64,000 nt of DNA from Myxococcales bacterium (GTDB taxonomy: Bacteria > Myxococcota_A > Polyangia > Polyangiales > DASUME01), in NCBI GenBank assembly GCA_047601445.1, contig JASGJH010000001.1, positions 4,096,001-4,160,000 of the forward strand, given 5' to 3'. A program made the position numbers and the translations under genes. How positions within the stretch are numbered: position 1 is the stretch's first letter; every line of letters starts with the position of its first letter. Shown here one piece after another: positions 2,354 to 19,930 of the stretch. The notes beneath the pieces are model-generated. The model made no database searches and was not told the DNA's origin. It saw only the letters and a program-made list of their open reading frames with translations.

Positions 2354-3007
2354 CTACGAGAGGGGCGCCAGTTCCGAGACGCTCTCGCCCCGAGACTTCC
2401 TGCTTCGCCTCCGTAGCGCGTCGGCGCCGCTCCATGCACAGACACCGTGGGAGCTAGTGGAGGGAGTCGCACCACTGTCCCCCGTACCCGAATCCGAGCC
2501 GTCGCCGATGCTGATGCACACTGCTTGGTCGCGCATGCCTGCATCGTCCTGCTCGTCGGCGCAGCCACAAAACACCTTGGCCGCATACTCGCGATCGAGC
2601 TCTCGAGTGTCGACGTAAATGTCGGCCGGATCCTCGGCCAAGTAGTGGCACAGTGGCGTCGTAGTGTCCCTCGTCTCGGCCCAAGCGCACGTGCCGCTCC
2701 GCGAACTCGGCGCAGAGCTCGCAACGGTTACTTCCCTGAAGGTCCTTGAGCTTCGCTAGATCGTACTCGGTCATGAGCCCGCACCAATCGGCCGCGTGCG
2801 CCCGATGGTAGGCTCGGGCGATCCAGGTCGAACGATCGCGTTCAAGCGACCCTGCTCCGCCCTCCTCAGACACGCGAGAGTCCGTGCTTCGACCACCGCG
2901 TGTGTCGCCAACAACCACCAAGGTTGATCTCGGCCGCGACAGAGGCTCGCGGAGCGCTGCGCTTCAGCGCATCGAGCACGCGCAAAGGAAACACCGACAT
3001 CTTGCAC
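2354..3007 (-). pseudogene. Frameshifted remnant of an unknown gene
   Basis: Protein-like segments in three successive minus frames (HAVVEARTLACL..GRLNAI / TEYDLAKL..HYDATVPLL / AEDPADIYVD..KVFCGC); a paralogous segment occurs at 12640-12818. Confidence 0.45.
2833..2904. repeat. Imperfect direct repeat, copy 1 (copy 2 at 12748-12818)
   Basis: agagtccgtgcttcgaccaccgcgtgtg (2877-2904) vs agagtgcgtgcttcgaccaccgcgtgtg (12791-12818), 27/28 identical; shared gcgttcaagcg upstream. Confidence 0.85.
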
Positions 3008-3156
3008 TCACCCCTCGCTTGCGATTCGCGCTGCACTCAGAGTTCGAACGCGCACAAGCGGGTTAACCTCCGCACTCGCAGAGAAGATGCGTGATAGGAG
3101 ATGCTTGTACGACGGAGCTCTCCCCCGAGTGTCCGTCTGCAGAGAGGAGGTCTCTC

Positions 3157-3180
3157 ATGAAGTACGACCACGTTGGTTGA
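3157..3180 (+). CDS. Putative biarylitide-type micro precursor peptide MKYDHVG
   Basis: AGGAGG (3145-3150), 6-nt spacer, ATG AAG TAC GAC CAC GTT GGT TGA; MxYxH motif upstream of a BytO/RufO-like P450. Confidence 0.75.
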   Translation: MKYDHVG

Positions 3181-3226
3181 TCGTAGCCAATCCTCCATTT
3201 CTTGGTTTCAACAAGGAGCAATCAAA

Positions 3227-3403
3227 ATGAAGTACAGCAATCAAAGCGGTGCTGTGACGAGCGAAGAGGATCTCTTGCTTTCGGATGAGGAGCTCGGCAG
3301 CGTGCATGGTGGACTCTCGACTCCCCCCAGGATTCCGATCCCGCCGCACTTTCCGCCGATCATTCGCCCACCGGTGACCTTCAACCCCGGCTTCTTCGCA
3401 TGA
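3227..3403 (+). CDS. Double-glycine-leader RiPP/bacteriocin precursor with Pro-rich core
   Basis: AAGGAG RBS at 3213-3218; leader ...LSDEELGSVHGG (LSxxELxxxxGG type); core LSTPPRIPIPPHFPPIIRPPVTFNPGFFA. Confidence 0.8.
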   Translation: MKYSNQSGAVTSEEDLLLSDEELGSVHGGLSTPPRIPIPPHFPPIIRPPVTFNPGFFA

Positions 3404-3407
3404 GTCG

Positions 3408-3452
3408 GTGCAGGGGCGAGTTTCGGCTCGCGAGCGAAATTCGTCCCTGCGC
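3408..3452 (+). terminator. Long stem-loop between the precursor genes and the P450 (attenuator or mRNA stabiliser)
   Basis: gcaggggcgagtttcg (3410-3425) pairs with cgaaattcgtccctgc (3435-3450) with two G-U pairs; no U-tract. Confidence 0.6.
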
Positions 3453-3507
3453 TGCTCCCAACGCGGTCGTCGCGAATATGCCTACGAGAAGAGAGGAGAT
3501 TGAGCCG

Positions 3508-4716
3508 ATGCCCCCCGATCCTGTCTACAACCCGTTGGACGCAGACACCCTGGAGAACCCGTTTCCGATCTATGACTATCTGCGATCCAACGCGCCGGTT
3601 TATTGGCACGAGCAGATGCAGTCATGGGTACTCACCCGATACGCGGACTGCCGGAACGTACTCCTGGACCACAAGCTCTTCGCACGCGACGAACGGCGTG
3701 TGGGTGAGTCGATCCCAGACGATCGCCTGAGCGTGCAACAGCTGGATCCCCCGGAAGTCATCCCTTTACGCCGCTTGTTCTTTCAGGCGTTCAAGGCGGT
3801 CGACCTCGAGCAGATTGCAAGGCGCGCACGCGGCCAGATCAGGGGGCTGCTCGATGCCCATGGCAAGAGGCCGATCTTCGATCTCATGGCAGACGTCGCT
3901 TCACCCGTGGCGGAGTCGCTGACTTGCGAATTCTTCGGTTCACCCACCCCACCGGCGCCGGGAAAGTTCATGCAGATTGCCCATGGCATCGCTCTCGGAA
4001 TGGATGCGGGGCTCGAACCCTGTCAGAGGGGCGCCGGGCGGGCCGTCAGCGTCGAGCTCGACCGCATGGTGCGCGACTGGTCGGAGGACCCCATTCCGGG
4101 AAGTTTCATGGCTGAGGTCAAAGACAAGATCCTCCCACGGAAATACCCGGACACGTTGATCTACCGCACCGTCGACGCCATGGTGAACGCATCGTACTCC
4201 ACGATTTACGCGTCCATTGGAAACGCAGCGCTCACCCTGTTTCAGCATCCAGAGATCCGCGCCGCCTTCACTCCGCACAACCTGGTCAGCGGATGCGACG
4301 AGATCCTGCGCTTCGACAGCCCCGCACATGCAACGAGCCGTGTCGCCACCGAGCGCACCACCATCGGCGGCACGGTGATCGAGCGTGGACAGGTGGTCAT
4401 CACGTTGTTCGCCGCTGCGAATCGAGACCCCGACGGTTTTGAACGCCCCAACGATCTCGTTCTCGACCGCCGTCACAATCATCACCTGGGCTTCGGCTGG
4501 GGTTCGCACCAGTGCCTTGGCATCGGCCTGGCGAACGTCGCCCTGCACGAGTTCGTGTCTGCCGCCCTGGCGCTGCCCGCGTTGCGCTCCCTGGGCAAGC
4601 CGAAGCGCTTTCGAACGGCCACTCTGCGCTGGCTGCAAAACCTGCCCGTAACCGCCTCGCCACAGTCGTCACCGGAAATGGAGGAGCAACGTCATGGCAC
4701 AACTGAACACGCATGA
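3508..4716 (+). CDS. Cytochrome P450, biarylitide BytO/RufO-like peptide-modifying family
   Basis: FGWGSHQCLG heme motif, EILR (ExxR); PVYWHE..SWVLTRYADC, LSVQQLDPP and MDAGLEP resemble BytO/RufO; RBS GAGGAG at 3493-3498. Confidence 0.9.
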   Translation: MPPDPVYNPLDADTLENPFPIYDYLRSNAPVYWHEQMQSWVLTRYADCRNVLLDHKLFARDERRVGESIPDDRLSVQQLDPPEVIPLRRLFFQAFKAVDLEQIARRARGQIRGLLDAHGKRPIFDLMADVASPVAESLTCEFFGSPTPPAPGKFMQIAHGIALGMDAGLEPCQRGAGRAVSVELDRMVRDWSEDPIPGSFMAEVKDKILPRKYPDTLIYRTVDAMVNASYSTIYASIGNAALTLFQHPEIRAAFTPHNLVSGCDEILRFDSPAHATSRVATERTTIGGTVIERGQVVITLFAAANRDPDGFERPNDLVLDRRHNHHLGFGWGSHQCLGIGLANVALHEFVSAALALPALRSLGKPKRFRTATLRWLQNLPVTASPQSSPEMEEQRHGTTEHA

Positions 4717-5830
4717 TGAATGGTCGCGAATCAGGGAAGTCATCGTCGGCAGCGCTGCCAACTACACTTCTCATGACCGAGAGCTCTCGTTCGACCTGTT
4801 CTTCCACGAAAACCTCTTCCGCTCGGACTGGGCCTACCCGCGCCTCAAGAGCGCGTGTCCCGTGCGCGATCGGGCCTGGGAGATCAAGCAGCGGTACGTC
4901 GAAGAGCTCAATGAAGACGTGGAAGGCCTCGTCGAGGTCCTGCGCTCTCTCGGCATCACCGTGCACAGGCCGATGCCGCTGCCGCCCAACACCCCCTCAA
5001 TCAAGGGCTTCGGCTGGGAAGCGATGCCCGTTCCTGCGCTCAACGTCCGCGACAACACGCTGATCCTCGGCAACGAGATCATCGAGACCCCGCCGGCCAT
5101 CCGCTCACGCTACCTCGAAACGCGCCTGCTTGCTCCCGCCTTCAAGCACTACCACGACGCAGGCGCTCGCTGGACGACGATGCCGCGTCCCCTCCTCACC
5201 GACCGCTCGTTCGATCTCTCCTACGCGCGCGACACCGAGACCAGCTTGGGGGGACCGACCGAGCCAATCGAGGATCCGCAAGCGTCGCCGTATGACGTGG
5301 GCTTCGAGATGATGTTCGACGGGGCTCAGTGCCTACGCCTTGGCCGCGACCTGGTGATGAACATCGCGAACGCCAACCACGCGCTCGCAGTTGACTGGCT
5401 CGAGCGTCATCTGGAGGGCCGCTACCGCATCCACCGTGCCTTCCGCATGAGTGACAACCACATCGACTCGATGATCTTGGCCTTGCGCCCCGGCGTCTTC
5501 CTTGCGCGTCACGCAGGCATCCGTGAGCACCTTCCGGAGTGCTTCAAGCGCTGGGAGTTCATCGTTCCTCCGGTGCCGGACGTCTTCCCCACCTACGAGG
5601 ACGCAGACCTCGTATTGACCAGCCCATACATCGACCTCAACGTACTCTCCATCAGCCCTACGACATTGCTGGCCAACGCGGCCTGCGTCGATCTGATCAG
5701 AACCCTCGAGCACCGGGGCTTCGAGGTGATCCCCGTTCGGCACCGTCACCGGCGCCTCTTCGGAGGTGGCTTTCATTGCTTCACCTTGGACACCGTCCGC
5801 GATGGCGGACTCGAGGACTACAGCGCCTAG
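4694..5830 (+). CDS. Amidinotransferase (glycine/inosamine amidinotransferase family)
   Basis: N-terminal NTHDEW..REVIVG, then RD, FDGA, HID, and C-terminal GGGFHCFT with catalytic Cys. Confidence 0.9.
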   Translation: MAQLNTHDEWSRIREVIVGSAANYTSHDRELSFDLFFHENLFRSDWAYPRLKSACPVRDRAWEIKQRYVEELNEDVEGLVEVLRSLGITVHRPMPLPPNTPSIKGFGWEAMPVPALNVRDNTLILGNEIIETPPAIRSRYLETRLLAPAFKHYHDAGARWTTMPRPLLTDRSFDLSYARDTETSLGGPTEPIEDPQASPYDVGFEMMFDGAQCLRLGRDLVMNIANANHALAVDWLERHLEGRYRIHRAFRMSDNHIDSMILALRPGVFLARHAGIREHLPECFKRWEFIVPPVPDVFPTYEDADLVLTSPYIDLNVLSISPTTLLANAACVDLIRTLEHRGFEVIPVRHRHRRLFGGGFHCFTLDTVRDGGLEDYSA

Positions 5831-5851
5831 CGCGCGGCATGGGAGGCCTGT

Positions 5852-7162
5852 GTGCGCATCCTGATTGGAAATCACATCGACGACTCACTGCTCTGGCAGA
5901 AGGATCAAAGGGCATTTAGTCAGCGCATCTTGTGGTTTGCGCAGGACGGCGACATCGTGATCCTCTCGTGCGAGCCGGACCCCTCTTTTCTCGAGTACGT
6001 CACGTCGCTTGCGGGGGTCGGACGCGACACCCTCGAGTTTCTCGTCGTGCCCCCGGGCGGCCACGGAACACGGCTATTCGATCCCAATTCACTGCTCGAT
6101 CCCGACTTCGTGGCCGAGGTGAAACGGCGCATCGGCGACGTGTCTGATGTCTTTGCGCTGTGGCCCTCCGCCCAGGTCGCCGAGTTTGCCGAACTGCTCG
6201 GGATCCGAGAGAAGCTACCGGGGGCCAGCTTTTTCGCTCAACAAGGCGACGAGCTCGCGAACAACAAAGGAAACTTCCGTGCCTTTGCCGCGGCCCTCGG
6301 CGTACCCGTCGCCGAGGGGGCAGTTTGCCGAACCAAGGAGCACGCAGAGCGAGTCATCGCGCGGCTCCTGCGGACCGGGCCAGTCATGGTCAAACAGGTT
6401 CACAACGGGGCCGGCAACGGCAACGAAGTTCTCGTCTGCGACGACGAGTTGGCCACTGACCATGCCGGCAACAATCGTCGACAGCGAATCGAACCTGGAT
6501 TTTTCGAGGTTCGCGACTACCTCGAAGCGCGCTGGAATTGGGCATCCGTCGGCGGGCGATTCGCCGTGGTGGTCGAGCGCTTCGTGCCAGGGGCTCGCAC
6601 CATATACGCCGAATTCGAGGCCAGAGACGATGGACTGGCGCACACCGCAACCGGATCACTGGGATATGAGCACGGCCGGCTCGTCGAAGAGGTTACGCCG
6701 CTGCGAGGCGTCACCGATGCGGTGCTCGCGCGACTCGTACACCTTGGCGGCCGCCTCGCCGAGACCTACCGGGCGTTTGGCTACCGCGGGTTCATGAGCG
6801 CTGACGCCGTCGTTGACCAATCCGGCAACCTGTTCTTCACCGAAATGAACGCACGTGTGGGCGCTTCTCTCCACCTCTACGAAGGCATCGGAAAGCGGGT
6901 CGTCGATCAGTTTCGTGTTCCTGAGCGGTCACTGATACAGCTCGTGACGCCCAAGCATTGGAAGGTACCAGGCTTCGACGCATTTTCGCGCGTCACTCGC
7001 GAACTCGGCGTCGCCTTCGACCCACTGACTCGGAAAGGAGTGATGGCGGCGATGCCCTTCGCTGGCGAGCCCTGCGCGGGGGGCCTCCTGTTTTGTATAG
7101 CCTACGAGACGGAGCGAGAGCACCACGCCATCGTGGCCCGGCTGACAGAGCGGTTCGGCTGA
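5852..7162 (+). CDS. Pgm1/KtmD-like ATP-grasp peptide ligase (preATP-grasp + ATP-grasp)
   Basis: ILIGN, QRILWFAQDGD, NNKGNFRA, GAGNGNE, GFMSADAVV, FTEMNARVG; GGAGG RBS before the GTG start. Confidence 0.8.
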   Translation: MRILIGNHIDDSLLWQKDQRAFSQRILWFAQDGDIVILSCEPDPSFLEYVTSLAGVGRDTLEFLVVPPGGHGTRLFDPNSLLDPDFVAEVKRRIGDVSDVFALWPSAQVAEFAELLGIREKLPGASFFAQQGDELANNKGNFRAFAAALGVPVAEGAVCRTKEHAERVIARLLRTGPVMVKQVHNGAGNGNEVLVCDDELATDHAGNNRRQRIEPGFFEVRDYLEARWNWASVGGRFAVVVERFVPGARTIYAEFEARDDGLAHTATGSLGYEHGRLVEEVTPLRGVTDAVLARLVHLGGRLAETYRAFGYRGFMSADAVVDQSGNLFFTEMNARVGASLHLYEGIGKRVVDQFRVPERSLIQLVTPKHWKVPGFDAFSRVTRELGVAFDPLTRKGVMAAMPFAGEPCAGGLLFCIAYETEREHHAIVARLTERFG

Positions 7163-7186
7163 CCCGCCCTTCGCCCGTTCAGCGCG

Positions 7187-10100
7187 TCATGGCGCACTGG
7201 CTTCCGCGGCTAGCGCTGGCGCCGCTTCGTTGAGACGGGACACCCGCCGCTGGAGGCTCGCCATCAAGTCCGTGCATTGCTCTTGATCGACCGCCTCGAC
7301 TACTGCAACGCCAATGCAGGTGGTCGAGCTCTCACGCATGTCGGCCATCGTCTGGCCCACCGGCACGGTCAGCGTGGCCTCCACGACGCCAGGAAGAGCG
7401 CGGATGTCCTCGCATCCAACACGATTGATCCGACCGGCCGACGCGGGGAGAGTCGTTACTCCGAAGACCTTATTCGGCTCACACGGTCGCCGCGGGATCG
7501 CGTCGCCCGTGATCGAGAGCGCTCCGGCCGCCCATAGGTCGACCCCGACCGCGCGCTCAATCATGCTCGAGATGTTGTTGCCAGCTACCCGCGCGGCCAG
7601 CTCGCCCGCAACGAAATCGAACGTACCCGGTCGAGCGAAGACCTCGAAGTGAAACACCCCGGTGACGTGCCCCAAGGCGTCGAGGGCCCGTTGGGTGAAC
7701 GTGCCCGCGGCTTGGTAGAGCTGCGGATGGCGGGACGGCGGGAAGGAAATGCTGGCGTGCTGTTTGCCGTTCTTGATCTCGAGGATAGGGGTCACGTACC
7801 TGGACGCATGGAACGTGTGCAGCTGGCCTTGCAGTACGACCCCGTCGAAGTGCCACTCATCGCCGGCGACAAACTCCTCGACCATCAGCCGGCGCAAATT
7901 CGGGTAATTCGCCACCGTGGTAGATACCGCGCTGACGAGCGCTTCGTCGTCCGATACGAACTGCACGTGACGCGTACCGTACCCGGCGACCGGCTTCAGC
8001 ACGAAGGGAGGACGCAGACCGGCGGTTCGTACCGACGCGAGCACAATGTCGGGGCTGGCACATGCATCGGGCACCACGACGAATCTGGCGGTGGGTATCC
8101 CAGCCTCGTGCCATGCGGCTTTTTGCACCGGCTTGTCGCGACAACGCAGAGCTACCTCGGGGTCGAGCCCACGGATGCCCAGGAGTCGTGCCAGGATGGC
8201 GCTCGAAACGACCCCCGTCTCGCAATTCGAGACCACGGCCCCGATCGGACGTGCGAGCGCACCCACCTGATGCAGCGCCGACCATAGGGACTCGACAGAG
8301 GTAAGCGTGTCGATGGCGCAAAAGTGACGGGCCCGTGGGCGCAGCGCCGAAACCCAGGGCTCTTGCCAGGCTTCGTACAGAAGGGTCACCTCGTGACCGG
8401 CCTCGACGAGGGCATCGAACGCTTCCCGTTTTGCTCTCACCAGCACTACGTGCATCGCTCTGCTCTCCTTCCGGTAGGCAGCTCTACTCTTCGATGTTTG
8501 GCGATTTGGAGCGGGCTCCGAGCGTGTCCCATGGGCAACAGAGGGAGCCCAATCACAACCTCTCCCGCATTTGAGCGAAGGCGGATTCGAAGCGTTCACG
8601 AGGTCGGATCCAATCGGCACTCGGGCGGTGAAGCCCTTCTCCAGGCGCTCGCATCTTACGTGAGTTGCTCTCGTCGTAGACGAGCCGGGTCGTCCAACGC
8701 TGACCGCGAGCTCCCCGCCCCGTTCCAGTGACAATCTTTGGCCGAAGGCCGACACCCCGGAGAACTCGTGAGGGACAGCCACATCGATCGCGTAGCCTTG
8801 GCCCGGCTCAAATAGATACCGGATGCGGAGACCCGATGAGCGGTCGTCCCAGGAACGGAGCACGCACAGCTCGGCCGAGTCCTCAAAGTGTCGGCGATTG
8901 GAGGCGATCAAGCCCTCGATTCGGTCGGAGATCAGCGCGCGATCCCCCGACTCGGCGTACTGGCGGAGCAGCGGAACGTGCCGTCGCAACAGCTGCGGGA
9001 GATACAACTCGGGTCGCTTCTCGTTGCGGATGACAGCCAGTCGAAAGGTCAGCTCCTGAAGCTCAGCGCGCTCGATTTCAGAGTTCGTCGCCCGCGCATC
9101 GAGCTCCTCGCGATACCGAGCGTACGCATCGATCAAGTCCCGAATCCGCTCGTCCTGAGCGCCTCCGAGCAGAACCTGGTTCAGCGCTTCTCGTCCTCTG
9201 GGCCACAGGCGAGCCAGCAAGCAGAGGATGCCACCGAGATCGTAGGTCCCCGTCCAGCGCGGCATGCGCCTCTCGATGAGAATCGGGGATGTGCCATCGA
9301 AAGCAACCTGATGAAGGTGCAAACCAAGCTGACCGTAGAACTTGCTCGGAGTGCACCGGGCCAGCCAGAATTGGGGAAACCCGCACAAGCGCAGGAGGCC
9401 TCGGATGACAGCCTGGGCATACTTTCGCTTCACCCGTTGCTCGAGCTCCTCGCGCTCGGGGATGGCAGCAGCGAGTCGAGGCGACAGCCCGAGGGCGGTG
9501 CAGTGCGCAAGATTTCTCAGCATGTCGCTGAGATTGGCAGGCGAGTCGGAACGGAACGGCGAGCCGCGCACCGCAATGGTGGAACCATGGTTTGGTTGAG
9601 TCGATTGCGTCTCGAAGTCGAGCAGTCGCCCACTGGTCTCGACATTCGACGACGACAGCGCTCCGTGGGGTGCCCGCCGCACGAGTAGCGCAGCTTGCTG
9701 TTCGGCAAGGCGATCGGCGAACTGCAGGAACCCCTCGCGTAGCGCCTCCTCGCAGGAGGCGGGCTCCGGAGTGTTCCGCGGCAAGGCGGCCATGATGCAT
9801 TGCTGCAGGGACCGGAGACTATCGGCGTCCTGACGAGAATAGGGGTTGAGCATGAAATGCGCCGGGCGCACCGGGAAAGGGCGTAGGAGCAGCGCGCGGC
9901 GCTTGCTGCGGCCATCCGGCAAGAGCATTGATGTCCCACAGTCCAGAATGGCGAGCACGCGGTTGGCGCCATGCGGCGCTTCGGCCTGGTTGAGCTCACC
10001 CCAGACTGCCTCGCGCATGGCATCTCCCAAGAACAGACCTCCATGCCGATGATCGTGCGGACTTCCGTGGTCGGCCAGCGACGTCGTCCCGATGCCTTTG

Positions 10101-10522
10101 ATCTGCAGCGATCCGAGCGCGGCTGCGCGGCCGCTCCCACGGTTGGCCCCGATGCCCTCACCACCGTATCGATCGGCATAAAAAGCCCGGGCTTCACCGA
10201 TGAACATGCCAGGCTCATCCTGGTCGTCCGGGATCCGATACGCGAAAGCTTCGAGGAATATGTGCTCGAGCTCAGGTGTGATGCCGTCGCTAGGCAACCC
10301 GAGCTCGAGGTCGCGCAACAGAGACCAGTTCACCCACAGCAGCCTCGCGTCGCGCATTCTTCGGGCGAGCACCGGCACGAACGCCTCCGGTGGTGGTGCC
10401 ACCGGCGCGTTGTCCATGAGCCGAGCGAGCCCGGCTCGGAGCCTGTCGTAGGGGGAAACGGACACGCCAATAGAGGCATGAAGCGATGTTGCGTCGCGAG
10501 CAATCCTCATCACCCCGCACAA
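7187..10522 (-). CDS. MchC/MceJ-like (SelO-fold) domain fused in frame to an ATP-grasp ligase; the ATP-grasp half may also start independently at 8455
   Basis: ADRYGGEGIG.N.GSGR, QIKGIG, REAVWGE, RRALLLR..VRPAHF, HGALSSSN, LDFET; then CRDK, LKPVAGYGT, VEEFVAGDE, FHFEVF, ELAAR. Confidence 0.75.
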   Translation of the reverse strand: MCGVMRIARDATSLHASIGVSVSPYDRLRAGLARLMDNAPVAPPPEAFVPVLARRMRDARLLWVNWSLLRDLELGLPSDGITPELEHIFLEAFAYRIPDDQDEPGMFIGEARAFYADRYGGEGIGANRGSGRAAALGSLQIKGIGTTSLADHGSPHDHRHGGLFLGDAMREAVWGELNQAEAPHGANRVLAILDCGTSMLLPDGRSKRRALLLRPFPVRPAHFMLNPYSRQDADSLRSLQQCIMAALPRNTPEPASCEEALREGFLQFADRLAEQQAALLVRRAPHGALSSSNVETSGRLLDFETQSTQPNHGSTIAVRGSPFRSDSPANLSDMLRNLAHCTALGLSPRLAAAIPEREELEQRVKRKYAQAVIRGLLRLCGFPQFWLARCTPSKFYGQLGLHLHQVAFDGTSPILIERRMPRWTGTYDLGGILCLLARLWPRGREALNQVLLGGAQDERIRDLIDAYARYREELDARATNSEIERAELQELTFRLAVIRNEKRPELYLPQLLRRHVPLLRQYAESGDRALISDRIEGLIASNRRHFEDSAELCVLRSWDDRSSGLRIRYLFEPGQGYAIDVAVPHEFSGVSAFGQRLSLERGGELAVSVGRPGSSTTRATHVRCERLEKGFTARVPIGSDLVNASNPPSLKCGRGCDWAPSVAHGTRSEPAPNRQTSKSRAAYRKESRAMHVVLVRAKREAFDALVEAGHEVTLLYEAWQEPWVSALRPRARHFCAIDTLTSVESLWSALHQVGALARPIGAVVSNCETGVVSSAILARLLGIRGLDPEVALRCRDKPVQKAAWHEAGIPTARFVVVPDACASPDIVLASVRTAGLRPPFVLKPVAGYGTRHVQFVSDDEALVSAVSTTVANYPNLRRLMVEEFVAGDEWHFDGVVLQGQLHTFHASRYVTPILEIKNGKQHASISFPPSRHPQLYQAAGTFTQRALDALGHVTGVFHFEVFARPGTFDFVAGELAARVAGNNISSMIERAVGVDLWAAGALSITGDAIPRRPCEPNKVFGVTTLPASAGRINRVGCEDIRALPGVVEATLTVPVGQTMADMRESSTTCIGVAVVEAVDQEQCTDLMASLQRRVSRLNEAAPALAAEASAP

Positions 10523-10554
10523 CAGTACCGACGCGAACCTTCAGGCGGCTCTGC

Positions 10555-11514
10555 TCACCCGGTTGCAAAGCGATCGAGCGCGCTCATCAGGGCCAATCGC
10601 TTGCTGTTGCTGCGCAGGTGCCCGGCGTCGTCCACCGCGATGAGCTCCGCCCCCGCCCATGCTCGCGCAAGGGCCCAGGCGGTGTCGATTGGACAACTCA
10701 TGTCTCGTCTTCCGTGGATCACCACCCCGGGGATTCCATCGAGCCGCGCCGCGTTCTGGATCAGAGCGCCTTCTTCCAACCAACCGCCATGCCGAAGGTA
10801 GTGGGTACAAATGCGCACGAAGGCCAGCATGTCCTCGACCGGCATCTCAGAGCTCGAGGCCGCGCCGGCACCAGTCTCGAGTGAGAGCACCGCGTCCTCC
10901 CATTTGCACCACCCCCTGGCGGCCGCCACCCTGACGGCCTCCTCAGGGTGATCCATGCGCTGGGCGTAAGCCTCGATCAGGTCCGCCCCACGCGCGGTGT
11001 TGGGTAAGGGACCTCGGAATTGTTCCCATGCTTCCGGGAAGAAACGAGCAGCCCCTGCGTACAGCCACTCGGCCTCACGACGAGTCCACGTAGTCACATT
11101 GCTGAGCACGAGCTCAGAAACCGACTCGCGATGGCGATGCGCATAGGCCAGCGCGAGCGCGACACCCCACGAGGCGCCGGAGACCAACCAACGCTCGATG
11201 CCGAGGTGACGCCGGAGGGATTCCATGTCCGCGATGAGGTGATCCGTCGTGTTGCATGACATGTCCGTGGCGAGGTCACTGGCGGAGGGGATCGACCTTC
11301 CGCAGCCCCGTTGGTCGAACAGAACCACCCTATACTGCTCCGGGTCGAACGCGCGCGCCATGTTGGGAGCGCAGCCTTGCCCGGGACCGCCGTGCAGCAC
11401 CACAGCGGGCTTTCCGTGGGGTACGCCGAAGACCTGCCACGCGATGCGGTTTTCGGAGCTGACCTCCAGGTGTCCTTCTTGGATGGGTCCTCGCAGCGGA
11501 TACAAGTCGACCAT
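10555..11514 (-). CDS. pip: Proline iminopeptidase (S33 alpha/beta hydrolase)
   Basis: LHGGPG, FDQRGCGRS, GASWG nucleophile, HGRRD, DAGH. Confidence 0.9.
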   Translation of the reverse strand: MVDLYPLRGPIQEGHLEVSSENRIAWQVFGVPHGKPAVVLHGGPGQGCAPNMARAFDPEQYRVVLFDQRGCGRSIPSASDLATDMSCNTTDHLIADMESLRRHLGIERWLVSGASWGVALALAYAHRHRESVSELVLSNVTTWTRREAEWLYAGAARFFPEAWEQFRGPLPNTARGADLIEAYAQRMDHPEEAVRVAAARGWCKWEDAVLSLETGAGAASSSEMPVEDMLAFVRICTHYLRHGGWLEEGALIQNAARLDGIPGVVIHGRRDMSCPIDTAWALARAWAGAELIAVDDAGHLRSNSKRLALMSALDRFATG

Positions 11515-11571
11515 GGAGACCTCGCATTCGTTGACACCGGATTTTCGCCAAACGCAACCGACCCCGACCGT

Positions 11572-12615
11572 CTACCCTGAAGACGGGCCCGTGTCTCGTG
11601 GAGGAACGGCCTGCGCGACGAGCACGTGAACGCCGGAGCGGGTGGTCAACACTCGCTCGATCACGAAGCCGGCTGCAACGAGCAAGGCGCGGTTCTCGTC
11701 GAGCGTGCGATCCCGAGCCCCGAACAACACGAGCATCGTCAGGTCTCGAATCGACGATGGAAGTCCGCCCTCGCGCTCCAGGTCGAGCGAGCGCTCGATG
11801 AGCAAGAGGCGCCCACCTCCCGTGATGGCGCGCCGCACGTTGCCAAGGATTTGCAAGGCCTCTTCGTCGCGCCAGTTGTGAATCACTGCCTTGAGCAAAT
11901 AGAGTTCTGCTCCAGCAGGAACCTCCCGCAACAGGTCGCCGGCGAGCGCTGTGCCTCGCCCGCTCACTCCTCGCTCCTGAAGAGTATGCCTGACTTGTTC
12001 GACCACGGCCGCCTGCTCGACCGCGATTCCTTGCAACTCCGGGTGTCCCTTCAGTACCTCGGCGAGCAGGGTTCCGTCACCCGCTCCCAGGTCGACGACC
12101 AGGCCTCGCTCGGGGAACTCGTACAGGGCTTCGAACTCGTTCCAGAAATGGGAGCTGTTGAAGCGCATCGTGCGCGCGAAGGAACGCGCCAGCTCGGGGG
12201 TTTCGCTCATGTAGGTCCACAGCCCCCGCCCATGCACGTGCTCGAAAGCCGAGCGACCGGTACGCAACGCGTAGCTCAAGCAGGCCCAGGCGTCGTAGTA
12301 TTCGGTTCCAGACATTCGAGCGTGACCATGAAGCAGACCCGCCTCGTGGTGCAGCAGCTTGCAGAGCGCGGTACCGTGAACCAGACCGTCGACGCGCTGT
12401 ACGAGCTCGAGTCCCTCAAGCGCATCCAAGTACCTGCGCAGTTCGTTCGTGCCGATACCGGTCAGCTCCGCGAGAGTGCGTTCGGTCTGCGGCCCCTCGG
12501 CCAGAAAGTCCGGGATGCGGAGCGTCACCGCCGAGGCCACGAGCTGCGTAACGATGTACCCACCCAACAGCTTCCCGAGCCGCTCGCCTTCCGGCCTGGC
12601 TTCGTTCTGGAGCAT
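11572..12615 (-). CDS. SAM-dependent methyltransferase (Methyltransf_2 with dimerisation domain)
   Basis: VDLGAGDG, LKAVIHNW; GAGGAGG RBS before MLQNE. Confidence 0.9.
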   Translation of the reverse strand: MLQNEARPEGERLGKLLGGYIVTQLVASAVTLRIPDFLAEGPQTERTLAELTGIGTNELRRYLDALEGLELVQRVDGLVHGTALCKLLHHEAGLLHGHARMSGTEYYDAWACLSYALRTGRSAFEHVHGRGLWTYMSETPELARSFARTMRFNSSHFWNEFEALYEFPERGLVVDLGAGDGTLLAEVLKGHPELQGIAVEQAAVVEQVRHTLQERGVSGRGTALAGDLLREVPAGAELYLLKAVIHNWRDEEALQILGNVRRAITGGGRLLLIERSLDLEREGGLPSSIRDLTMLVLFGARDRTLDENRALLVAAGFVIERVLTTRSGVHVLVAQAVPPRDTGPSSG

Positions 12616-12747
12616 TCGGAACCTCCTCAACTGCTTGCCTCAAGTCGTACTCGAGTGCGAGGCCCATGGCGACGAGGTTAACCCCGCGTGGCGCAAGATG
12701 ACGGCGGTCCAGCCCGCCCAACCGCCGATGGTCCCTATCCGCCATAG

Positions 12748-12818
12748 CGATGGCGTTCAAGCGCCCCGCCAACGCCCCATGAGACAAGCCAGAGTGCGTG
12801 CTTCGACCACCGCGTGTG
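12748..12818. repeat. Imperfect direct repeat, copy 2
   Basis: Matches 2833-2904; minus strand encodes HAVVEARTLACL then, after a frameshift, GRLNAI. Confidence 0.85.
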
Positions 12819-12855
12819 GGGAAGACGCTTGGCTTCTCTTGCAACGAGGTTGGTG

Positions 12856-13839
12856 ATGAGCGAGCACTTGCTTGGTGCGGCCGCGGCGTGCGGCTGTTTG
12901 GTAATGTGGAATCTGCTGGGTGGCTGCGGATCGGAAGACAGCACGTCTGCACGGAGCGCGGACACGCCGAGCGCGCAGGATGCGGGTGAAGGCGACGACT
13001 CTTCCACGGAGCAAGACGGTGATGAACCGTGGGACGACGCAGACGCATCGAGCGAGGAGCCCGGCCCCGATGCCTCGGACAAGGGCTCGCAACCCCCGCA
13101 AGACTCCGCCCTGTGCCACCTGGCTGGCGAGCAGGTGGCGGTGCTGGGGGACTCCTACGTCGCGCTGGATCCCACCTACGTGAAGTTCGACACCCATCCT
13201 TTCACGCGCAATCTGGAGGCGCTGGCGCGCAGCGCGGGAGCGCTCGGCGAGAGCGAGCAATATCGCCGCCTCGCCGTGAGTGGCGCCTCGATGAACGGGT
13301 TTCCCAATGTTCCTGCGCAGCTCGACGGCGCACTCGAGAGCGATCCGGACCTGAAGCTGATCATCATGGACGGCGGAGGCAACGATGTGCTGGTGAACAA
13401 CCGCCAGTGCCTGGAGCACGCCACGGCCGACGAGCTCCTACGGGACGAAAGTTGTGTGGGCACCGTGGATGATGTGCTCGCCGCAGCTCAAGGAATGTTC
13501 GACAAGGCCAGCGCCGCGGGAGTGGAATCCGTGGTCTATTTCTTCTATCCGCATCTGCCTGGCTACGCGTCCGGCTATCTCAACCTCGCCGGTACCTATC
13601 CGAACGTCATGTTGGACTACGCGTATCCACGCATGCAGGCCTTCTGCACGGGACAGCACGCCTTGCCTTGCACCTTCGTGGACATGCGGCCCGTGTTCGA
13701 CACGGACGGCGACGGCGCGCCCGATCCCGGCATGATCAACGTGGATGGCATCCATCCGACCGAGGCGAGCTCCAAGCTGCTGGCCGCGGAGGTCTGGAAG
13801 GTCATGCGGCGGGAGTGCCTTGCCGTGGAGCGCCCGTGA
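12856..13839 (+). CDS. SGNH/GDSL hydrolase lipoprotein
   Basis: LGDSY, AVSGA, GGGND, DGIHP; lipobox LLGGC and acidic linker. Confidence 0.88.
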   Translation: MSEHLLGAAAACGCLVMWNLLGGCGSEDSTSARSADTPSAQDAGEGDDSSTEQDGDEPWDDADASSEEPGPDASDKGSQPPQDSALCHLAGEQVAVLGDSYVALDPTYVKFDTHPFTRNLEALARSAGALGESEQYRRLAVSGASMNGFPNVPAQLDGALESDPDLKLIIMDGGGNDVLVNNRQCLEHATADELLRDESCVGTVDDVLAAAQGMFDKASAAGVESVVYFFYPHLPGYASGYLNLAGTYPNVMLDYAYPRMQAFCTGQHALPCTFVDMRPVFDTDGDGAPDPGMINVDGIHPTEASSKLLAAEVWKVMRRECLAVERP

Positions 13840-14236: not shown

Positions 14237-15148
14237 TCAGGCTGGGGTGGCTTGCTGGCGCACGTGGCGCACCATGGCCTCGAGTCGATCGCGGTCCTGA
14301 TGGGCGTGGGGTCCCCTCAGGGGCTGCGTCGGAAGCTCCAATGAAAGGCGCAAGCTAGGCGAGCGCAGATAGCGCGAAGGCGGCAGGCCGAACATGCCGC
14401 GAAAGACGCGCGTGAGATGCGCAGAGTCGGCAAAGCCCGCGTCGTGAGCCGCGTCCGTCAAATCGTTCCCGAACGCCACGCTGTACACCACCTGGCGCAC
14501 GCGCAGCCATGCCATGTAGCGCCCCAGGGGAACGCCCATCTGCTCCACGAACAGGTGTCCGAGCCGACTCTCCGAGAGCCTGGCGAGCTCGGCCAGCTCG
14601 GCGGCGACGGGGGCCTGCGGAGCGCTGCGCTTCAATGCGTCGAGCACACGCAGGACACGCGCGTCGAGTCGACGCTCGGCGGGACCTGGTGCGCCCAAGA
14701 TCTCCAGTGCCACCTGCCAGACGCCCATGCCCGGGGACAGCCGTGCCAGCGCCGCGAGAACGCCTTCGCGCACAGCTCCGACGTGGGGCTTTTCGAGCAA
14801 GGTCACACGGGGCTGCTCGGTCGGCCACAGGCGCGCGGCCAAACGCGCATACTCCGCGCTCTCGGGATCGATCTGAAGGCTCAACACCAGTCCATTGCCG
14901 GACAGCGCGAGCGGCGTGTTGGGCGGCACGATCACGGCGCATGCCTCTTGCCAGGCCGCGTCCGCGCGATGTCTGAAGCGAAGGCTCCCACTCAACGCCA
15001 GCGTGGCGGAGGCCGTGAAGTGCGTGTGCAAGCCGGTCGTGAGGCCCTCACACAGGAGCGCGCTGCCACCCGGGTGGATGAAGAGTCGGCCGTGGGGGGC
15101 GCGATCACCGGGCAATGCAGAACCTCCGAGAGCTCGAAGGTGCCACAA
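14237..15148 (-). CDS. AraC family transcriptional regulator
   Basis: LSESRLGHLF..MG, AAHDAGFADSAHLTRVFRGMFG. Confidence 0.88.
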   Translation of the reverse strand: MWHLRALGGSALPGDRAPHGRLFIHPGGSALLCEGLTTGLHTHFTASATLALSGSLRFRHRADAAWQEACAVIVPPNTPLALSGNGLVLSLQIDPESAEYARLAARLWPTEQPRVTLLEKPHVGAVREGVLAALARLSPGMGVWQVALEILGAPGPAERRLDARVLRVLDALKRSAPQAPVAAELAELARLSESRLGHLFVEQMGVPLGRYMAWLRVRQVVYSVAFGNDLTDAAHDAGFADSAHLTRVFRGMFGLPPSRYLRSPSLRLSLELPTQPLRGPHAHQDRDRLEAMVRHVRQQATPA

Positions 15149-16758: not shown

Positions 16759-18849
16759 ATGTCCGCACGAAGCGCATTGGCTTGGCTCACGCTCTTGGTT
16801 GGTTGTACGGCGGCAGCCCCGCAGAGCGATGTCACCTCAGCCCCATCACCCAGCGCGCCAGGTGACGCGCCCGGGAGTACGCCGACGGGAGAAGCGTCGT
16901 CGAGCTCCGCGCGGGAAGAGGCCCCGAACCCCGACCCGATGTTCGTGGACGCCATTTTCCAGGCCAAGTCCGCGGTGGTCGTGAAGGATGGCCAGATGTT
17001 CGGCGACTGGGAGTGGGTCGAGGTACCTGGTTCCCAGTGTCGGGATGGGTCCACCGCCGGCTACTACATCAAGCGCAACAGTGCGTCCGACAATCTGATG
17101 ATCTTCCTGAACGGCGGCGGCGTCTGCTACGACGACTTCTTCTGCTCCATCAACCCGGCCAACGTGGACCAAAGTCTACCGGGCGAAAACCTGCTCGGCG
17201 CCATCGGCGATATCCTGACAAACAGCGTCGCTCCGGTGCGCCAGGTTCCGCCCGAGGCAGGCATCTTCTTGGATCGTCCCGAGAACCCCGTCGGCAAGTG
17301 GAACATGGTCTACGTGCCCTATTGCACGGGCGATGTGCATGCTGGCACCAAGCGCGACGCGCCCGTGTTCACGGCGTCGTTCGTGGGCAAGCAGCAGTTC
17401 GTGGGCTACGACAACCTGAGCTTGTTCCTGGAAGACTTCGGCGCTGCATTTCAGGGCGCAGAGAAGGTGCTGCTCACCGGATCGAGCGCCGGTGGCTTTG
17501 GCACCCTGCTCAACTTCGACCGCACCCAGCGCTTCTTCTCCGACAGCATGGTGTATGCGGTGAGCGACTCGGGCATCCCCTTCGGCGACGAGTTCCTCGA
17601 GCCGTGTCTGCAGAAGCGCTGGCGCGAGCTCTGGGGCCTCGACGCCGTCTTGCCGCGCGACTGCTCGGGTTGCTTCAACGCCGACGGCGGCGGCCTGGCC
17701 TCGGGACTCGGCCACTACATCTTCAAAGAGAAATACGCAGGCCGCATGTTGGGTGGGGGGATCTCCACCGAGCAGGACGAGATCATCAAGCTCTTCTTCA
17801 GCTCGGGCTTGCGCGAGTGCACCAACAGTGCCCTGCTCGAGACCATCCCACTCTTCCTCGGCTTGACTGGCTATCCTGCAGATCGCTACCCGGGCGGCCT
17901 GCGCGACTTCGTGCAGAACATCGCCGGACTCGACAGTGTGGGCAGCTACATCATGGCCGGCAGCAATCACCAGCACTTGTTCCGCGATCGCTTCTACAGC
18001 TCGAACGGCCTTGGAATCACGCTGGCCCACTGGCTGGCCAAGACCCTGGATGGCGAAGCGGTCCACGCGGGTGCGCTGCTCGATGCGGCGCCCGAGCCCA
18101 CTTTCGGATCCACGGGTCACAACGGTCCACTGAAGGTCGCCAGCTACACCAGCGGCTTCCGCGACGGCCCCGACTTCGCGGACGCGACCATCTGGTACCC
18201 CGATGGCGTGACGGGGCCCCTGGCGAGCGTGGCCGTGGTTCCAGGCTGGGTTTCGAGCCAAGGCGACGTGACCGATTGGGGGCCGTTCTTGGCCTCTCAC
18301 GGTTTTGCCGTGATCACCATCGGCACCAACAGCCCTGCCACGGATCTGCCGGCCGACCGTGAACGCGCGGTCATGGACGCGCTCGAGACGATGCGCGCCG
18401 AGAACAGCCGCTGGTTCGGTCCGCTGCAGAACAAGCTCGACCTGACGCGTCAGGCGGTGATCGGCTGGTCCATGGGAGGCGGCGCGAGCCTGCTGGCGGC
18501 AGCCGATCATCCCGAGCTCAAGGCGGCCGTCTCGCTGTGTGGCTGGAACCCTGGCCATTCCTACAACGACGTGACGGTTCCTTCCCTACTCTTTGCGGGC
18601 ACCCTCGATGCTCTTGCCGGCGGTCAGTCGCAGGGCTTCTACGAGAGCATCCCCAACGCTACGCCGCGCTTGCTCTACGAAGTTCAAGGCGGTGACCACT
18701 GGGTCGCGAATGACCCCGCACACGAAGAGGGACAAATTGGACGCCTCGCGCTGTCGTGGTTGAAGCTCTACGTCGATGGCGACGAGCGCTACCGCAAGTT
18801 CCTGCTCGAAGAGCCCTTCAACGCCGCCGACTTCCGGGTCGACCTGTAG
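16759..18849 (+). CDS. Lipoprotein with pectinacetylesterase-like domain fused to a cutinase/PETase-like alpha/beta hydrolase
   Basis: LLVGC lipobox; CRDGS, FLNGGG.C, VPYCTGDVH, GSSAGG; second domain VVPGW, LASHGF, GWSMGGG, GTLD, GGDH. Confidence 0.85.
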   Translation: MSARSALAWLTLLVGCTAAAPQSDVTSAPSPSAPGDAPGSTPTGEASSSSAREEAPNPDPMFVDAIFQAKSAVVVKDGQMFGDWEWVEVPGSQCRDGSTAGYYIKRNSASDNLMIFLNGGGVCYDDFFCSINPANVDQSLPGENLLGAIGDILTNSVAPVRQVPPEAGIFLDRPENPVGKWNMVYVPYCTGDVHAGTKRDAPVFTASFVGKQQFVGYDNLSLFLEDFGAAFQGAEKVLLTGSSAGGFGTLLNFDRTQRFFSDSMVYAVSDSGIPFGDEFLEPCLQKRWRELWGLDAVLPRDCSGCFNADGGGLASGLGHYIFKEKYAGRMLGGGISTEQDEIIKLFFSSGLRECTNSALLETIPLFLGLTGYPADRYPGGLRDFVQNIAGLDSVGSYIMAGSNHQHLFRDRFYSSNGLGITLAHWLAKTLDGEAVHAGALLDAAPEPTFGSTGHNGPLKVASYTSGFRDGPDFADATIWYPDGVTGPLASVAVVPGWVSSQGDVTDWGPFLASHGFAVITIGTNSPATDLPADRERAVMDALETMRAENSRWFGPLQNKLDLTRQAVIGWSMGGGASLLAAADHPELKAAVSLCGWNPGHSYNDVTVPSLLFAGTLDALAGGQSQGFYESIPNATPRLLYEVQGGDHWVANDPAHEEGQIGRLALSWLKLYVDGDERYRKFLLEEPFNAADFRVDL

Positions 18850-18857
18850 CGCTGACC

Positions 18858-19874
18858 TTACGGGCAGTGATCCACGGGCACCAGGTTGTCCACCGCGAGG
18901 ATGCCGCCCTTGTTGGCATCGGTGCTCGACGGCGCGAGCGAGAGATGAGCGACGTCCGCGGTCGGCACGAAGGTGGCGCAAAAGGTCTGCCACGTGGTCG
19001 TCGGCGTCGGAGACGCCCACAGCAGCTGATCTCGCCCGCAACGCGAGCTTCCGCCCCAGATCTCGAGGTGGTTCGTGCCCGAGACTTCGCCCTGCAGTAG
19101 CGGTGCGGCAACGTCGATCAAGAAGCTGTGGGAAGTGCCCGCTTTGAGCGGCGCGCACAGCGGCTCCGAAGCCCCCTGGGTCCCCACTCCACCGTTGGCC
19201 GAGGTGAGCAAGTAGGTCTTGCCGTCGGTCGGCGCGAGCTGTCCATCCATCCCGGGGTACGGCCGATCGGACCAGATGGTGTTGTTGTCGGTGGGAAAGC
19301 TGCCACAGCTCACCCACGGGCTCGCGCTGGACACCCCGTCGCCGAGCCAGCCTGGCGAGCTGCTTCCCGAAGGATCGCCCTCGATGGATGGATTCGTGAA
19401 ACACACGTTCCCGTCGCCCTTGGTTCCACCATCGGCCTCGCAGTCCAGCACCTCGGCCGTCACCATCGCAGTCGCAGTTTGCTGCTGCTGCGAGAACTCC
19501 TGCGACGAGGCGGGCGCATCCTTCACCGTCACCGAGTAGGCTGTCGTCGCCGTGGGGCAGAGGTGCCGCATGGGATTCGCCGAGCCGTCCTCCCAGGTGA
19601 ATGAGTAAGGTGCCACACCGCCCTTGGCGACCGCGACCACGTCGGCGCAATCTCCTGCGCAGGCGAGCGTGACGATATCGATGGTGACGTGGTCTCGCTC
19701 CACGTGAGCTTTCAGCTTGTCCTCTGGGTCTGCGCCGTCGGGGCCGTCGTCGTCCGCCCCCTGATTGTCATCGGGCGGGCCCCCGGGATCGTCGGTCCGG
19801 CCGACGGTCGCCTGGGTCGCAGAGCAGCCTGCAAGGGCGATGAGCGCCAAGAGAAGAGAGGGCCGGAGGTTCAT
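18858..19874 (-). CDS. Hypothetical lipoprotein (Cys-containing, carbohydrate-binding-like C-terminus)
   Basis: ALAGC lipobox, GGVAPYSFTW. Confidence 0.65.
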   Translation of the reverse strand: MNLRPSLLLALIALAGCSATQATVGRTDDPGGPPDDNQGADDDGPDGADPEDKLKAHVERDHVTIDIVTLACAGDCADVVAVAKGGVAPYSFTWEDGSANPMRHLCPTATTAYSVTVKDAPASSQEFSQQQQTATAMVTAEVLDCEADGGTKGDGNVCFTNPSIEGDPSGSSSPGWLGDGVSSASPWVSCGSFPTDNNTIWSDRPYPGMDGQLAPTDGKTYLLTSANGGVGTQGASEPLCAPLKAGTSHSFLIDVAAPLLQGEVSGTNHLEIWGGSSRCGRDQLLWASPTPTTTWQTFCATFVPTADVAHLSLAPSSTDANKGGILAVDNLVPVDHCP

Positions 19875-19930
19875 GCTCCCTTCATGCGGCGATCCGACCA
19901 GTCCTTGGCCATGGGGAAGGAATTTCTGGC

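Follow-up and report, generated by a model that had tools for sequence, protein, structure and literature searches.

The convergent operons and their boundaries

We analysed a stretch of 64,000 nucleotides (nt) from a Myxococcales genome (contig JASGJH010000001.1, positions 4,096,001 to 4,160,000; "the window" hereafter means this whole stretch), in which two operons face each other. The forward operon carries, in this order, a micro-open reading frame (micro-ORF) for a heptapeptide, a 58-residue ORF, a cytochrome P450 gene, an amidinotransferase gene and the gene of a PGM1 homologue; the facing operon carries the genes of an O-methyltransferase, a prolyl aminopeptidase and a protein in which an MchC-like domain is fused to an L-amino-acid ligase. 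Judged from sequence comparisons, these genes may together form a biarylitide/Pgm1-ligase hybrid cluster with an acquired microcin-type module, and we regard this overall interpretation as evenly balanced. Its biarylitide/Pgm1 part (module A below) and the membership of the locus in that hybrid class are highly probable. A sequence-only reading of the same DNA had listed these features and named the genes; sequence, domain and structure searches found all of the features in their places, and the gene identities, including the MchC-like one, were correct. The features are as follows, in window positions.

2833 to 2904, no strand: left copy of a direct repeat, 72 nt, imperfect, bounding the inserted block
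3157 to 3180, forward strand: bytA-like micro-ORF, ATG AAG TAC GAC CAC GTT GGT TGA, encoding MKYDHVG (7 residues)
3227 to 3403, forward strand: candidate second precursor of 58 residues, with AAGGAG 7 nt upstream; MKYSNQSGAVTSEEDLLLSDEELGSVHGG then LSTPPRIPIPPHFPPIIRPPVTFNPGFFA
3406 to 3457, forward strand: G+C-rich hairpin directly 3' of the 58-residue ORF
3508 to 4716, forward strand: BytO/P450Blt-type cytochrome P450, 402 residues from ATG 3508 (longest ORF from 3400), matching Pfam p450
4694 to 5830, forward strand: amidinotransferase of the pheganomycin-type lineage, 378 residues; PDB matches StrB1 (9e-46) and AGAT (1e-43)
5852 to 7162, forward strand: PGM1-like ATP-grasp peptide ligase, 436 residues; PDB match 3wvq (2e-78) over residues 1-421
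7187 to 10522, reverse strand: fusion protein, a 1111-residue ORF open from TTG 10522, with ATG 10417 as the likely start (1076 residues)
7190 to 8410, reverse strand: L-amino-acid-ligase-type ATP-grasp domain, the C-terminal part of the fusion (residues ~705-1111)
8455 to 10417, reverse strand: MchC/MceJ-like domain (SelO superfamily, kinase fold), the N-terminal part of the fusion
10555 to 11514, reverse strand: S33 hydrolase of the prolyl aminopeptidase family, 319 residues; NCBIfam TIGR01249 at 294 bits against a cut-off of 260
11572 to 12630, reverse strand: class I S-adenosylmethionine-dependent O-methyltransferase of the small-molecule phenol type, 352 residues; Pfam Methyltransf_2 (1e-33) and a dimerisation domain
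12748 to 12818, no strand: right copy of the direct repeat, overlapping the 5' end of a GDSL-lipase gene (12814-13839)

The two repeat copies (83% identity, E 5e-16, by repeat search and blastn) bracket exactly both convergent operons, and the block between them measures ~9.9 kb (2905-12747). The cluster genes are single-copy in the 9.5-Mb genome, and the G+C content of the block is 0.57–0.66 compared with 0.663 for the genome. Furthermore, a search of 60 related genomes, 9 from the same genus and 51 from the same order, yielded no PGM1 homologue. At E 1e-30, no member of the MchC-like family turned up in 400 genomes sampled from the phylum, and three Streptomyces genomes gave none either. Because it is bracketed by repeats, single-copy, not found in the relatives searched and of this G+C content relative to the genome, the block looks like one acquired unit. 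That the two operons belong together, as the sequence-only reading had assumed, is borne out by this common bracketing and by relatives of the O-methyltransferase, the ligase and the peptidase in sister clusters (L029, L031 and L009, related loci being numbered with an L throughout).

Directly after the left repeat, a 56-nt stretch (2929-2984) is 84% identical to 14597-14652, which lies inside an AraC-type regulator gene (14237-15148); tblastn gave 85% over 20 residues for this gene fragment. The copy looks like a rearrangement scar. A promoter and terminator scan of 2700-3600 found neither.

The heptapeptide precursor

The micro-ORF has GAGAGGAGG 6 nt upstream of its start, and its product, MKYDHVG, carries Asp at position 4 and Val-Gly as a two-residue follower. 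It fits the criterion for biarylitide precursors (5–8 residues with aromatics at positions 3 and 5, MxYxH/Y/W), and its start lies 351 nt before that of the P450 gene, within the ~500 bp set for a biarylitide P450 gene. By analogy, Tyr3 and His5 are presumed to be the cross-link pair. Only four ATG-start ORFs of 5–8 residues with the pattern M.Y.H occur on both strands of the 9.5-Mb genome, and M.YDH is found in this one only.

Related loci were collected in two scans: a scan with the P450, limited to one genome per species, returned 13 loci, and a metagenome scan with the amidinotransferase returned 77. Eight Streptomyces loci encode MRYDHCL 100–150 nt upstream of a P450 that is 47–49% identical to ours, and an amidinotransferase, an L-amino-acid ligase and a PGM1 homologue follow downstream. 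The metagenomic micro-ORFs read MRYDH (L016 and L017), MTYDHIA (L018), MVYDH (L020), MFYDH (L022, L033 and L034), MHYNHL (L029), MTYDHIF (L030) and MTYDHII (L036); L032 has MTYDHISLP, its P450 being cut by the contig end. The full set of a BytO-like P450, an amidinotransferase and a PGM1 homologue was found in 21 other loci, 20 of which have an MxY(D/N)H micro-ORF or ORF start, the exception being a 3.1-kb contig (L053). Of these 20, 18 have Asp at position 4 and two have Asn (L009 and L029); C-terminal followers of 1–4 residues are common in this micro-ORF subfamily.

Because such micro-ORFs are rare genome-wide and MxY(D/N)H recurs beside homologous P450s in the related loci, the micro-ORF is, in our judgement, a real biarylitide-type precursor, as had been supposed from its motif. 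The notion that it is a mere regulatory leader peptide was rejected, since the peptide, and not the DNA, is conserved beside homologous P450s across distant loci. We also rejected an MKYLH micro-ORF at genome position 241004 as a second biarylitide gene; it has no P450 nearby and lies antisense within another coding sequence.

Two variant arrangements were observed among the related loci. In L015, whose amidinotransferase is the closest to that of the window (81%), MCYDH opens an 85-residue ORF (6061-6318) behind a strong TAAGGAG, and the rest of this ORF resembles, by eye, a Cro/C1-type helix-turn-helix domain. It could be a bytA-regulator fusion or a longer P450 substrate. In L010, two tandem MSYDH micro-ORFs (11259-11355) lie downstream of the P450, and the locus has no amidinotransferase or PGM1 homologue.

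The cytochrome P450

The likely start of the P450, ATG 3508, lies behind AGAGAGGAG, and alignments to solved P450s begin there. The PDB matches are NsRufO (22yx, 4e-79) and then P450Blt (8u2m) and RufO (8spc), both at ~1e-67, with the next, unrelated P450s at 1e-31. According to PMC13651536, these entries are nitrating and cross-linking enzymes acting on MRYLH. In a tree of 25 P450s, the window enzyme is sister to the L029 enzyme (support 100/99).

Could the micro-peptide be merely a scaffold for Tyr modification by the P450, from which a peptidase then releases an amino acid or dipeptide, to be assembled non-ribosomally by the amidinotransferase and the ATP-grasp ligases? The best structural match by sequence, NsRufO, is a nitrating RufO homologue, which speaks for this alternative and against cross-linking. 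RufO-type enzymes are described in the literature as using MRYLH and supplying nitro-Tyr to a non-ribosomal peptide synthetase, and a peptidase is encoded in the cluster. On the other hand, RufO is distinguished by a lost I-helix alcohol residue (PMC13651536), and the window enzyme keeps it: its I-helix reads N-A-S-Y-S-T, compared with H-A-G-F-E-V in RufO and H-A-G-Y-A-S in P450Blt, with Thr at the position where RufO has Val. No nitric oxide synthase (PF02898) was found in the genome, and control genomes did give matches in that search. The window P450 thus shows neither mark of RufO-type nitration, that is, neither the Val replacement nor a co-encoded nitric oxide synthase. With the alcohol residue retained and no nitric oxide synthase in the genome, cross-linking is the likely reaction. 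Moreover, the conservation of His5 and Asp/Asn4 across 20 loci argues that the whole YDH unit matters. We consider the scaffold route highly improbable.

The amidinotransferase and the PGM1-like ligase

The amidinotransferase has no Pfam match and is 60–81% identical to its metagenomic relatives. Its partner, the PGM1-like ligase, matches Pfam PreATP-grasp (2e-24) and is a full-length PGM1 homologue. We built an amidinotransferase tree of 68 full-length rows, namely the window and 67 loci, from which L001–L008 were excluded (only 27–28% identical). All 14 amidinotransferases from loci with a BytO-like P450 fall into one clade of 26 (support 100), in which the window enzyme sits too, and 12 of the 14 from type III polyketide synthase (PKS) loci fall into a neighbouring clade of 17; one label change on the tree explains biarylitide versus type-III-PKS linkage. 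The pheganomycin-type assignment that the sequence-only reading had given to this enzyme pair is therefore upheld by the ligase match (3wvq, 2e-78) and by the neighbouring type-III-PKS-linked clade.

No DpgA-D-type genes (type III PKS, enoyl-CoA hydratase) were found among the cluster ORFs, and the two type III PKS genes of the genome, at 4.65 and 8.54 Mb, lie >0.5 Mb from the cluster. From the amidinotransferase clades and the lack of aryl-glycine genes in the cluster, we infer that a cross-linked peptide with an aromatic N-terminal residue replaces the aryl-glycine as the amidinated amine.

A type III PKS lies near the amidinotransferase in 14 of the fetched loci. In L051 (3068-14315) and L056 (2474-15833), a type III PKS, enoyl-CoA hydratases, a P450, a PGM1 homologue, an O-methyltransferase, a major facilitator superfamily transporter and the amidinotransferase are encoded, a gene set of the classical pheganomycin/resorcinomycin type. 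In L037, an 81-residue C-terminal remnant of a BytO-like P450 (8315-8557) stands beside an intact PGM1 homologue and an amidinotransferase, and this locus may be a decaying hybrid cluster.

The 58-residue candidate precursor

Between the micro-ORF and the P450 gene lies the 58-residue ORF, which encodes a double-glycine (GG)-type leader, LSDEELGSVHGG, and a 29-residue core that contains 10 Pro, begins LSTPPRIP and ends NPGFFA. Hydrophobic residues stand at −4, −7 and −12 before the GG, which is the consensus spacing of GG leaders. The base composition by codon position is coding-like (0.58/0.49/0.69), and one protein record matches the sequence exactly. ATG-start ORFs of 30–110 residues with the GG-leader pattern and a Shine–Dalgarno core number 15 in the 9.5-Mb genome, counted with a pattern that was devised after the peptide had been seen. 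The spacer from micro-ORF to P450 measures 93–153 nt in ten sister loci versus 351 nt here, and the ORF occupies the extra space. On these sequence features, it is quite probably a real gene.

Searches for resemblance gave a weak NCBIfam bacteriocin-like match (E 0.09) and weak protein-atlas leads (0.84) to lantibiotic and ComC-type small peptides. There is no paralogue in the genome, the best other match (E 0.01) lying inside a long unrelated ORF, and the same GG-leader pattern found no small ORF near the two C39 exporters of the genome.

The micro-ORF (3157-3165) and the 58-residue ORF (3227-3235) share the opening ATGAAGTAC (Met-Lys-Tyr), an agreement that could be chance or could go back to a duplicated bytA start. 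The longer peptide has Asn at position 5 and thus no cross-link partner there. The hairpin that follows the ORF has a folding energy of −49.4 kcal/mol over 116 nt (z −2.64), which 2 of 200 shuffled sequences equalled, and no T-tract terminator was found at it. Lying between precursor and enzyme genes, it may act as a stem for processing or stabilisation.

The MchC-like::ligase fusion and the other enzymes of the facing operon

The C-terminal part of the fusion matches Pfam LAL_C2, ATP-grasp_4 and ATPgrasp_N as well as PDB 4wd3 (1e-19), and it is 40–50% identical to stand-alone ligases in L001–L009 and L029. The N-terminal ~650 residues have no Pfam match by themselves. They belong to a family of 1337 representatives; a profile of 38 members, 23 of which match Pfam SelO, reaches SelO/YdiU structures at 6e-8. 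The nearest MchC-like proteins, P0004–P0006, are 44–49% identical. BLASTP gave a plasmid "MchC protein" at 1e-27 and an Aliivibrio "bacteriocin maturation protein" at 2e-39, and in tblastn against plasmids, 22 records had matching genes, annotated "MchC protein", "putative bacteriocin maturation protein" or "SelO family protein". The Lys, Glu, two Arg, Asn and Asp that are invariant in the family are retained in the window. According to PMC3281104, MchC proteins are a distant SelO subfamily; MchC and an HlyC-type protein (MchD/MceI) are described there and in PMC6071977 as cooperating in siderophore attachment to microcins.

In five plasmid contexts that were fetched, an HlyC-type acyltransferase gene abuts the MchC-like gene in all five, and HlyD and a peptidase-ATP-binding cassette (ABC) exporter are encoded in four. 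The gene annotated "putative bacteriocin" next to the Aliivibrio relative encodes a GG leader. None of five long MchC-like family members that were checked has an ATP-grasp domain, and tblastn found no MchC-like domain in the 90 fetched loci. Because no ATP-grasp domain occurs in the checked family members and an HlyC-type partner was not found here, the fusion is unusual. Among the loci scanned, the 58-residue GG peptide and the MchC-like domain are additions seen together only here.

Among the long relatives (P0051, P0063, P0074 and P0152 are such relatives of window 8455-10417), three are fused to DUF7790 and Zeta-toxin-like/AAA kinase domains and one to an HlyC acyltransferase and an erythromycin-esterase-like domain; one of the five checked has no further domain. 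Homology of the MchC-like domain to the APH-type kinase of L009 was rejected, as BLASTP gave no match. ARAGORN called a tRNA-Ala(GGC) of 97 nt at 10153-10249 on the reverse strand, inside the MchC-like coding region, which is probably a false positive.

The prolyl aminopeptidase has a 43% identical homologue in the L009 cluster. The O-methyltransferase matches the structures of CalO6 (3e-53), MmcR and DtpM, and its 50–52% identical homologues adjoin the amidinotransferase gene in L029 and L031.

A proposed pathway

The following sequence of steps is proposed from the enzyme families. The ribosome would make MKYDHVG, and the BytO-type P450 would cross-link Tyr3 and His5. Met-Lys would then be trimmed off, with the S33 peptidase of the cluster as the candidate, and the amidinotransferase would turn the freed aromatic alpha-amine into a guanidine; in type-III-PKS clusters, the nearest lineage of this enzyme is expected to act on aryl-glycines at their alpha-amine. 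Further amide bonds would come from the PGM1-like and L-amino-acid-ligase ATP-grasp enzymes, and the O-methyltransferase would cap a phenol.

The 58-residue GG-leader peptide would be a second precursor, handled by the MchC-like::ligase fusion. We link these two because both set this cluster apart and because the known business of the MchC family is GG-leader peptides, whose C-terminus it matures in microcin systems; the peptide being the fusion's substrate is a tentative assignment by analogy, somewhat short of evenly balanced. Because the MchC-like domain is fused to the ligase of module A, the fusion would most likely load the module A product, or an amino acid, onto the 58-residue peptide before leader removal. 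GG leaders are normally removed by the C39 peptidase domain of the exporter at export, and here the leader would be removed by a distant peptidase-ABC exporter.

Are two ribosomal peptides joined?

If the fusion loads the module A product, two separately encoded ribosomal peptides become one molecule. We regard a covalent union of the two, by any route, as doubtful, although well worth weighing. The attachment end may be N-terminal, via the PGM1-like ligase, or C-terminal, via the MchC-like domain, and the microcin precedent points by analogy to the C-terminus. The complete three-way hybrid, in which an amidinated, cross-linked micro-ORF unit sits on the Pro-rich GG peptide to give a microcin-like product with a biarylitide-guanidine head or tail, is rather unlikely.

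The sequence-only reading had favoured the N-terminal route, in which the PGM1-like ligase attaches the amidinated YDH unit to the free N-terminal Leu of the leaderless Pro-rich core. This is the logic of pheganomycin, with the biarylitide in the place of the aryl-glycine and the 58-residue peptide in that of PGM2. In its favour, the cluster has a full-length PGM1 homologue and an amidinotransferase whose lineage is sister to the type-III-PKS-linked one, it lacks Dpg-type genes, with the type III PKS genes of the genome as distant as stated above, and the operon itself encodes a ribosomal peptide with a leader. PMC10591300 supplies the precedent, a guanidino acid joined to the N-terminus of a ribosomal peptide in pheganomycin.

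Nevertheless, this proposal found no direct support. None of 24 related loci showed the second precursor, 21 of them having the P450/amidinotransferase/PGM1 set, so that the ligase must have another substrate pair there. The synteny search that the sequence-only reading had called for found MxY(D/N)H in 20 of 21 loci and a GG-type small ORF in none of the 24 scanned save for one spurious match in L009. In addition, a GG leader that is cut at export leaves no free N-terminus in the cytoplasm for an ATP-dependent ligase, the Val-Gly follower must be removed or belong to the donor, and the MchC-like domain is left unexplained. We therefore judge the N-terminal route to be quite unlikely.

Could the 58-residue ORF be a bystander altogether? 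The cluster would then yield only a small amidino-biarylitide peptide, the ORF being an independent or decaying bacteriocin-like gene or no gene at all, and the MchC-like domain would tailor or inactivate a small molecule (for example, by nucleotidylation or phosphorylation), replacing the APH-type kinases of sister clusters. Several observations favour this and weigh against a microcin-type module. The core set recurs without a second precursor, from which it follows that the core chemistry does not need one. APH-type kinases are encoded in five sister clusters (L009, L017, L020, L033 and L034) and none is encoded here, and L034 has another tailoring domain, a methyltransferase, fused to its L-amino-acid ligase. 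In light of these kinases and the L034 fusion, the kinase-fold MchC-like domain could simply be another small-molecule tailoring or self-protection domain. No HlyC-type partner (MchD/MceI) was found among the cluster ORFs; genome-wide, PF02794 gave no match either, a weak result because control genomes were silent too. No ABC membrane domain occurs in the 64-kb window and no HlyD lies nearby, the two C39-peptidase exporters of the genome being at 4.87 and 8.28 Mb, ~0.77 and 4.2 Mb off. The core ends in GFFA, not in the Ser-rich tail of class IIb microcins. Finally, the 58-residue peptide has no homologue beyond itself in a word search of 5.8 billion proteins, at near lengths or in longer proteins, and none by tblastn over the 90 fetched loci, so that conservation cannot vouch for it.

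On the other hand, the ORF sits between bytA and the P450 gene in the inserted block, with a strong Shine–Dalgarno sequence and textbook GG-leader hydrophobic spacing, and such ORFs are rare in the genome even by the after-the-fact pattern. Furthermore, the documented role and the plasmid contexts of the MchC family concern GG-leader bacteriocins, and the peptide and the MchC-like domain were gained together only here. We consider the bystander explanation unlikely, although it deserves serious attention. The interpretation that we prefer overall remains a biarylitide/Pgm1-ligase hybrid cluster to which a microcin-type module may have been added.

Accessory and neighbouring genes

Sister clusters carry further accessory genes. 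An Asp/Asn beta-hydroxylase is encoded in three loci, and the coordinates of such accessory genes (the beta-hydroxylase, the APH-type kinase and so on) include L017:8658-9659, L033:3026-4006, L034:8757-9983 and L009:17388-18488, among others. L001 has extra genes for a hexapeptide-repeat acyltransferase and a pyridoxal phosphate enzyme of the cysteine-synthase fold.

Outside the inserted block, a 317-residue ORF on the forward strand (1398-2351) has a LysE-type exporter gene on one side and the left repeat on the other. Its base composition by codon position is coding-like (0.69/0.46/0.75), and it has no Pfam, NCBIfam or PDB match. Farther to the right, at 16759-22799, the window encodes a 696-residue protein with pectin-acetylesterase and PET-hydrolase-like domains, after which come genes for a formylglycine-generating enzyme and a sulfatase.

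Significance

Biarylitide/Pgm1 hybrids are widespread, with 47 in print and 21 loci here, from Streptomyces to metagenomic lineages. No other member seen so far is as informative as the present locus: it is not among the Streptomyces examples, it brings candidates where other clusters have gaps (a peptidase to remove the leader and a ribosomal partner peptide), and because it is compact and repeat-bounded, it can be cloned as one 10-kb piece. Should the peptides remain separate, the amidinotransferase tree still indicates that one switch led from clusters linked to aryl-glycine to those linked to biarylitides, which suggests a testable product for the hybrid class, namely a guanidino-capped, cross-linked tripeptide unit. 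If the peptides are joined, the locus would represent a new route of peptide building, in which two ribosomal products are ligated by ATP-grasp or MchC-type enzymes, and the MchC/SelO fold would be used without its usual HlyC-type partner. The product would be, we believe, the first ribosomally synthesised and post-translationally modified peptide built from two ribosomal precursors, and the biarylitide/Pgm1 hybrids, unexplained as a class, would gain a function, at least in one lineage.

Comparison with known systems

The ketomemicin (ktm) clusters also pair an amidinotransferase with a PGM1-type ATP-grasp ligase (PMC11565770, PMC13514850). Unlike the window, they have no ribosomal peptide and no P450, and the ketomemicin pseudodipeptide is built by an aldolase, a pyridoxal phosphate enzyme, a dehydratase and a dehydrogenase; the window cluster encodes none of these. 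The pheganomycin pathway is closer. The window shares with it the PGM1 homologue, an amidinotransferase of the neighbouring lineage and a leader-bearing ribosomal peptide alongside, but has the biarylitide micro-ORF and P450 in the place of the type III PKS and enoyl-CoA-hydratase genes.

With the class IIb microcins (MccE492 and H47, which use MceJ-MceI or MchC-MchD and MceGH/MchEF export), the window shares the MchC-like domain and the double-glycine-type leader. It lacks their HlyC-type partner, glycosyltransferase, esterase, adjacent HlyD/peptidase-ABC exporter and Ser-rich C-terminus, and its MchC-like domain carries a fused ATP-grasp ligase, an arrangement not found in any of the five long relatives that were checked.

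Myxarylin and the canonical biarylitides (MRYYH/MRYLH with BytO/P450Blt) have in common with the window a minimal precursor with a two-residue leader, a P450 and a methyltransferase. The methyltransferase there is the N-methyltransferase BytZ, whereas that of the window is of the phenol-O-methyltransferase type, and the window precursor has seven residues with the Val-Gly follower. Characterised biarylitide clusters have no dedicated protease, according to PMC12951456, whereas the window and L009 encode an S33 peptidase in the cluster.

The closest relatives are the clusters that Padva et al. (JACS Au 2026, PMC13417212) describe: among 277 biarylitide biosynthetic gene clusters, 47 have a Pgm1 homologue and Asp4, an association called "a striking" one. 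They are termed biarylitide-pheganomycin machinery hybrids there, and no product is described. The sequence-only reading had held that no characterised pathway has this combination; our search of the literature on biarylitides with ATP-grasp enzymes, amidinotransferases or pheganomycin likewise found no paper characterising such a pathway, but the combination itself is already in print in those 47 clusters. The main text of PMC13417212, as distinct from its Table S1, which lay outside our search, makes no mention in its accessible part of a second precursor, a double-glycine peptide or an MchC-like enzyme. The window matches the pattern of this class exactly (an MxYDH-type micro-ORF, a BytO-type P450, a PGM1 homologue and Asp4) and differs from it by the 58-residue GG-leader peptide between bytA and the P450 gene and by the MchC-like::ligase fusion. 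By these gene-level comparisons, we place the cluster, which is genuine and clearly bounded, in a hybrid class that is known but not yet characterised, with a microcin-type addition specific to its lineage; what is new here is the second precursor candidate together with the MchC-like domain fused to a ligase.

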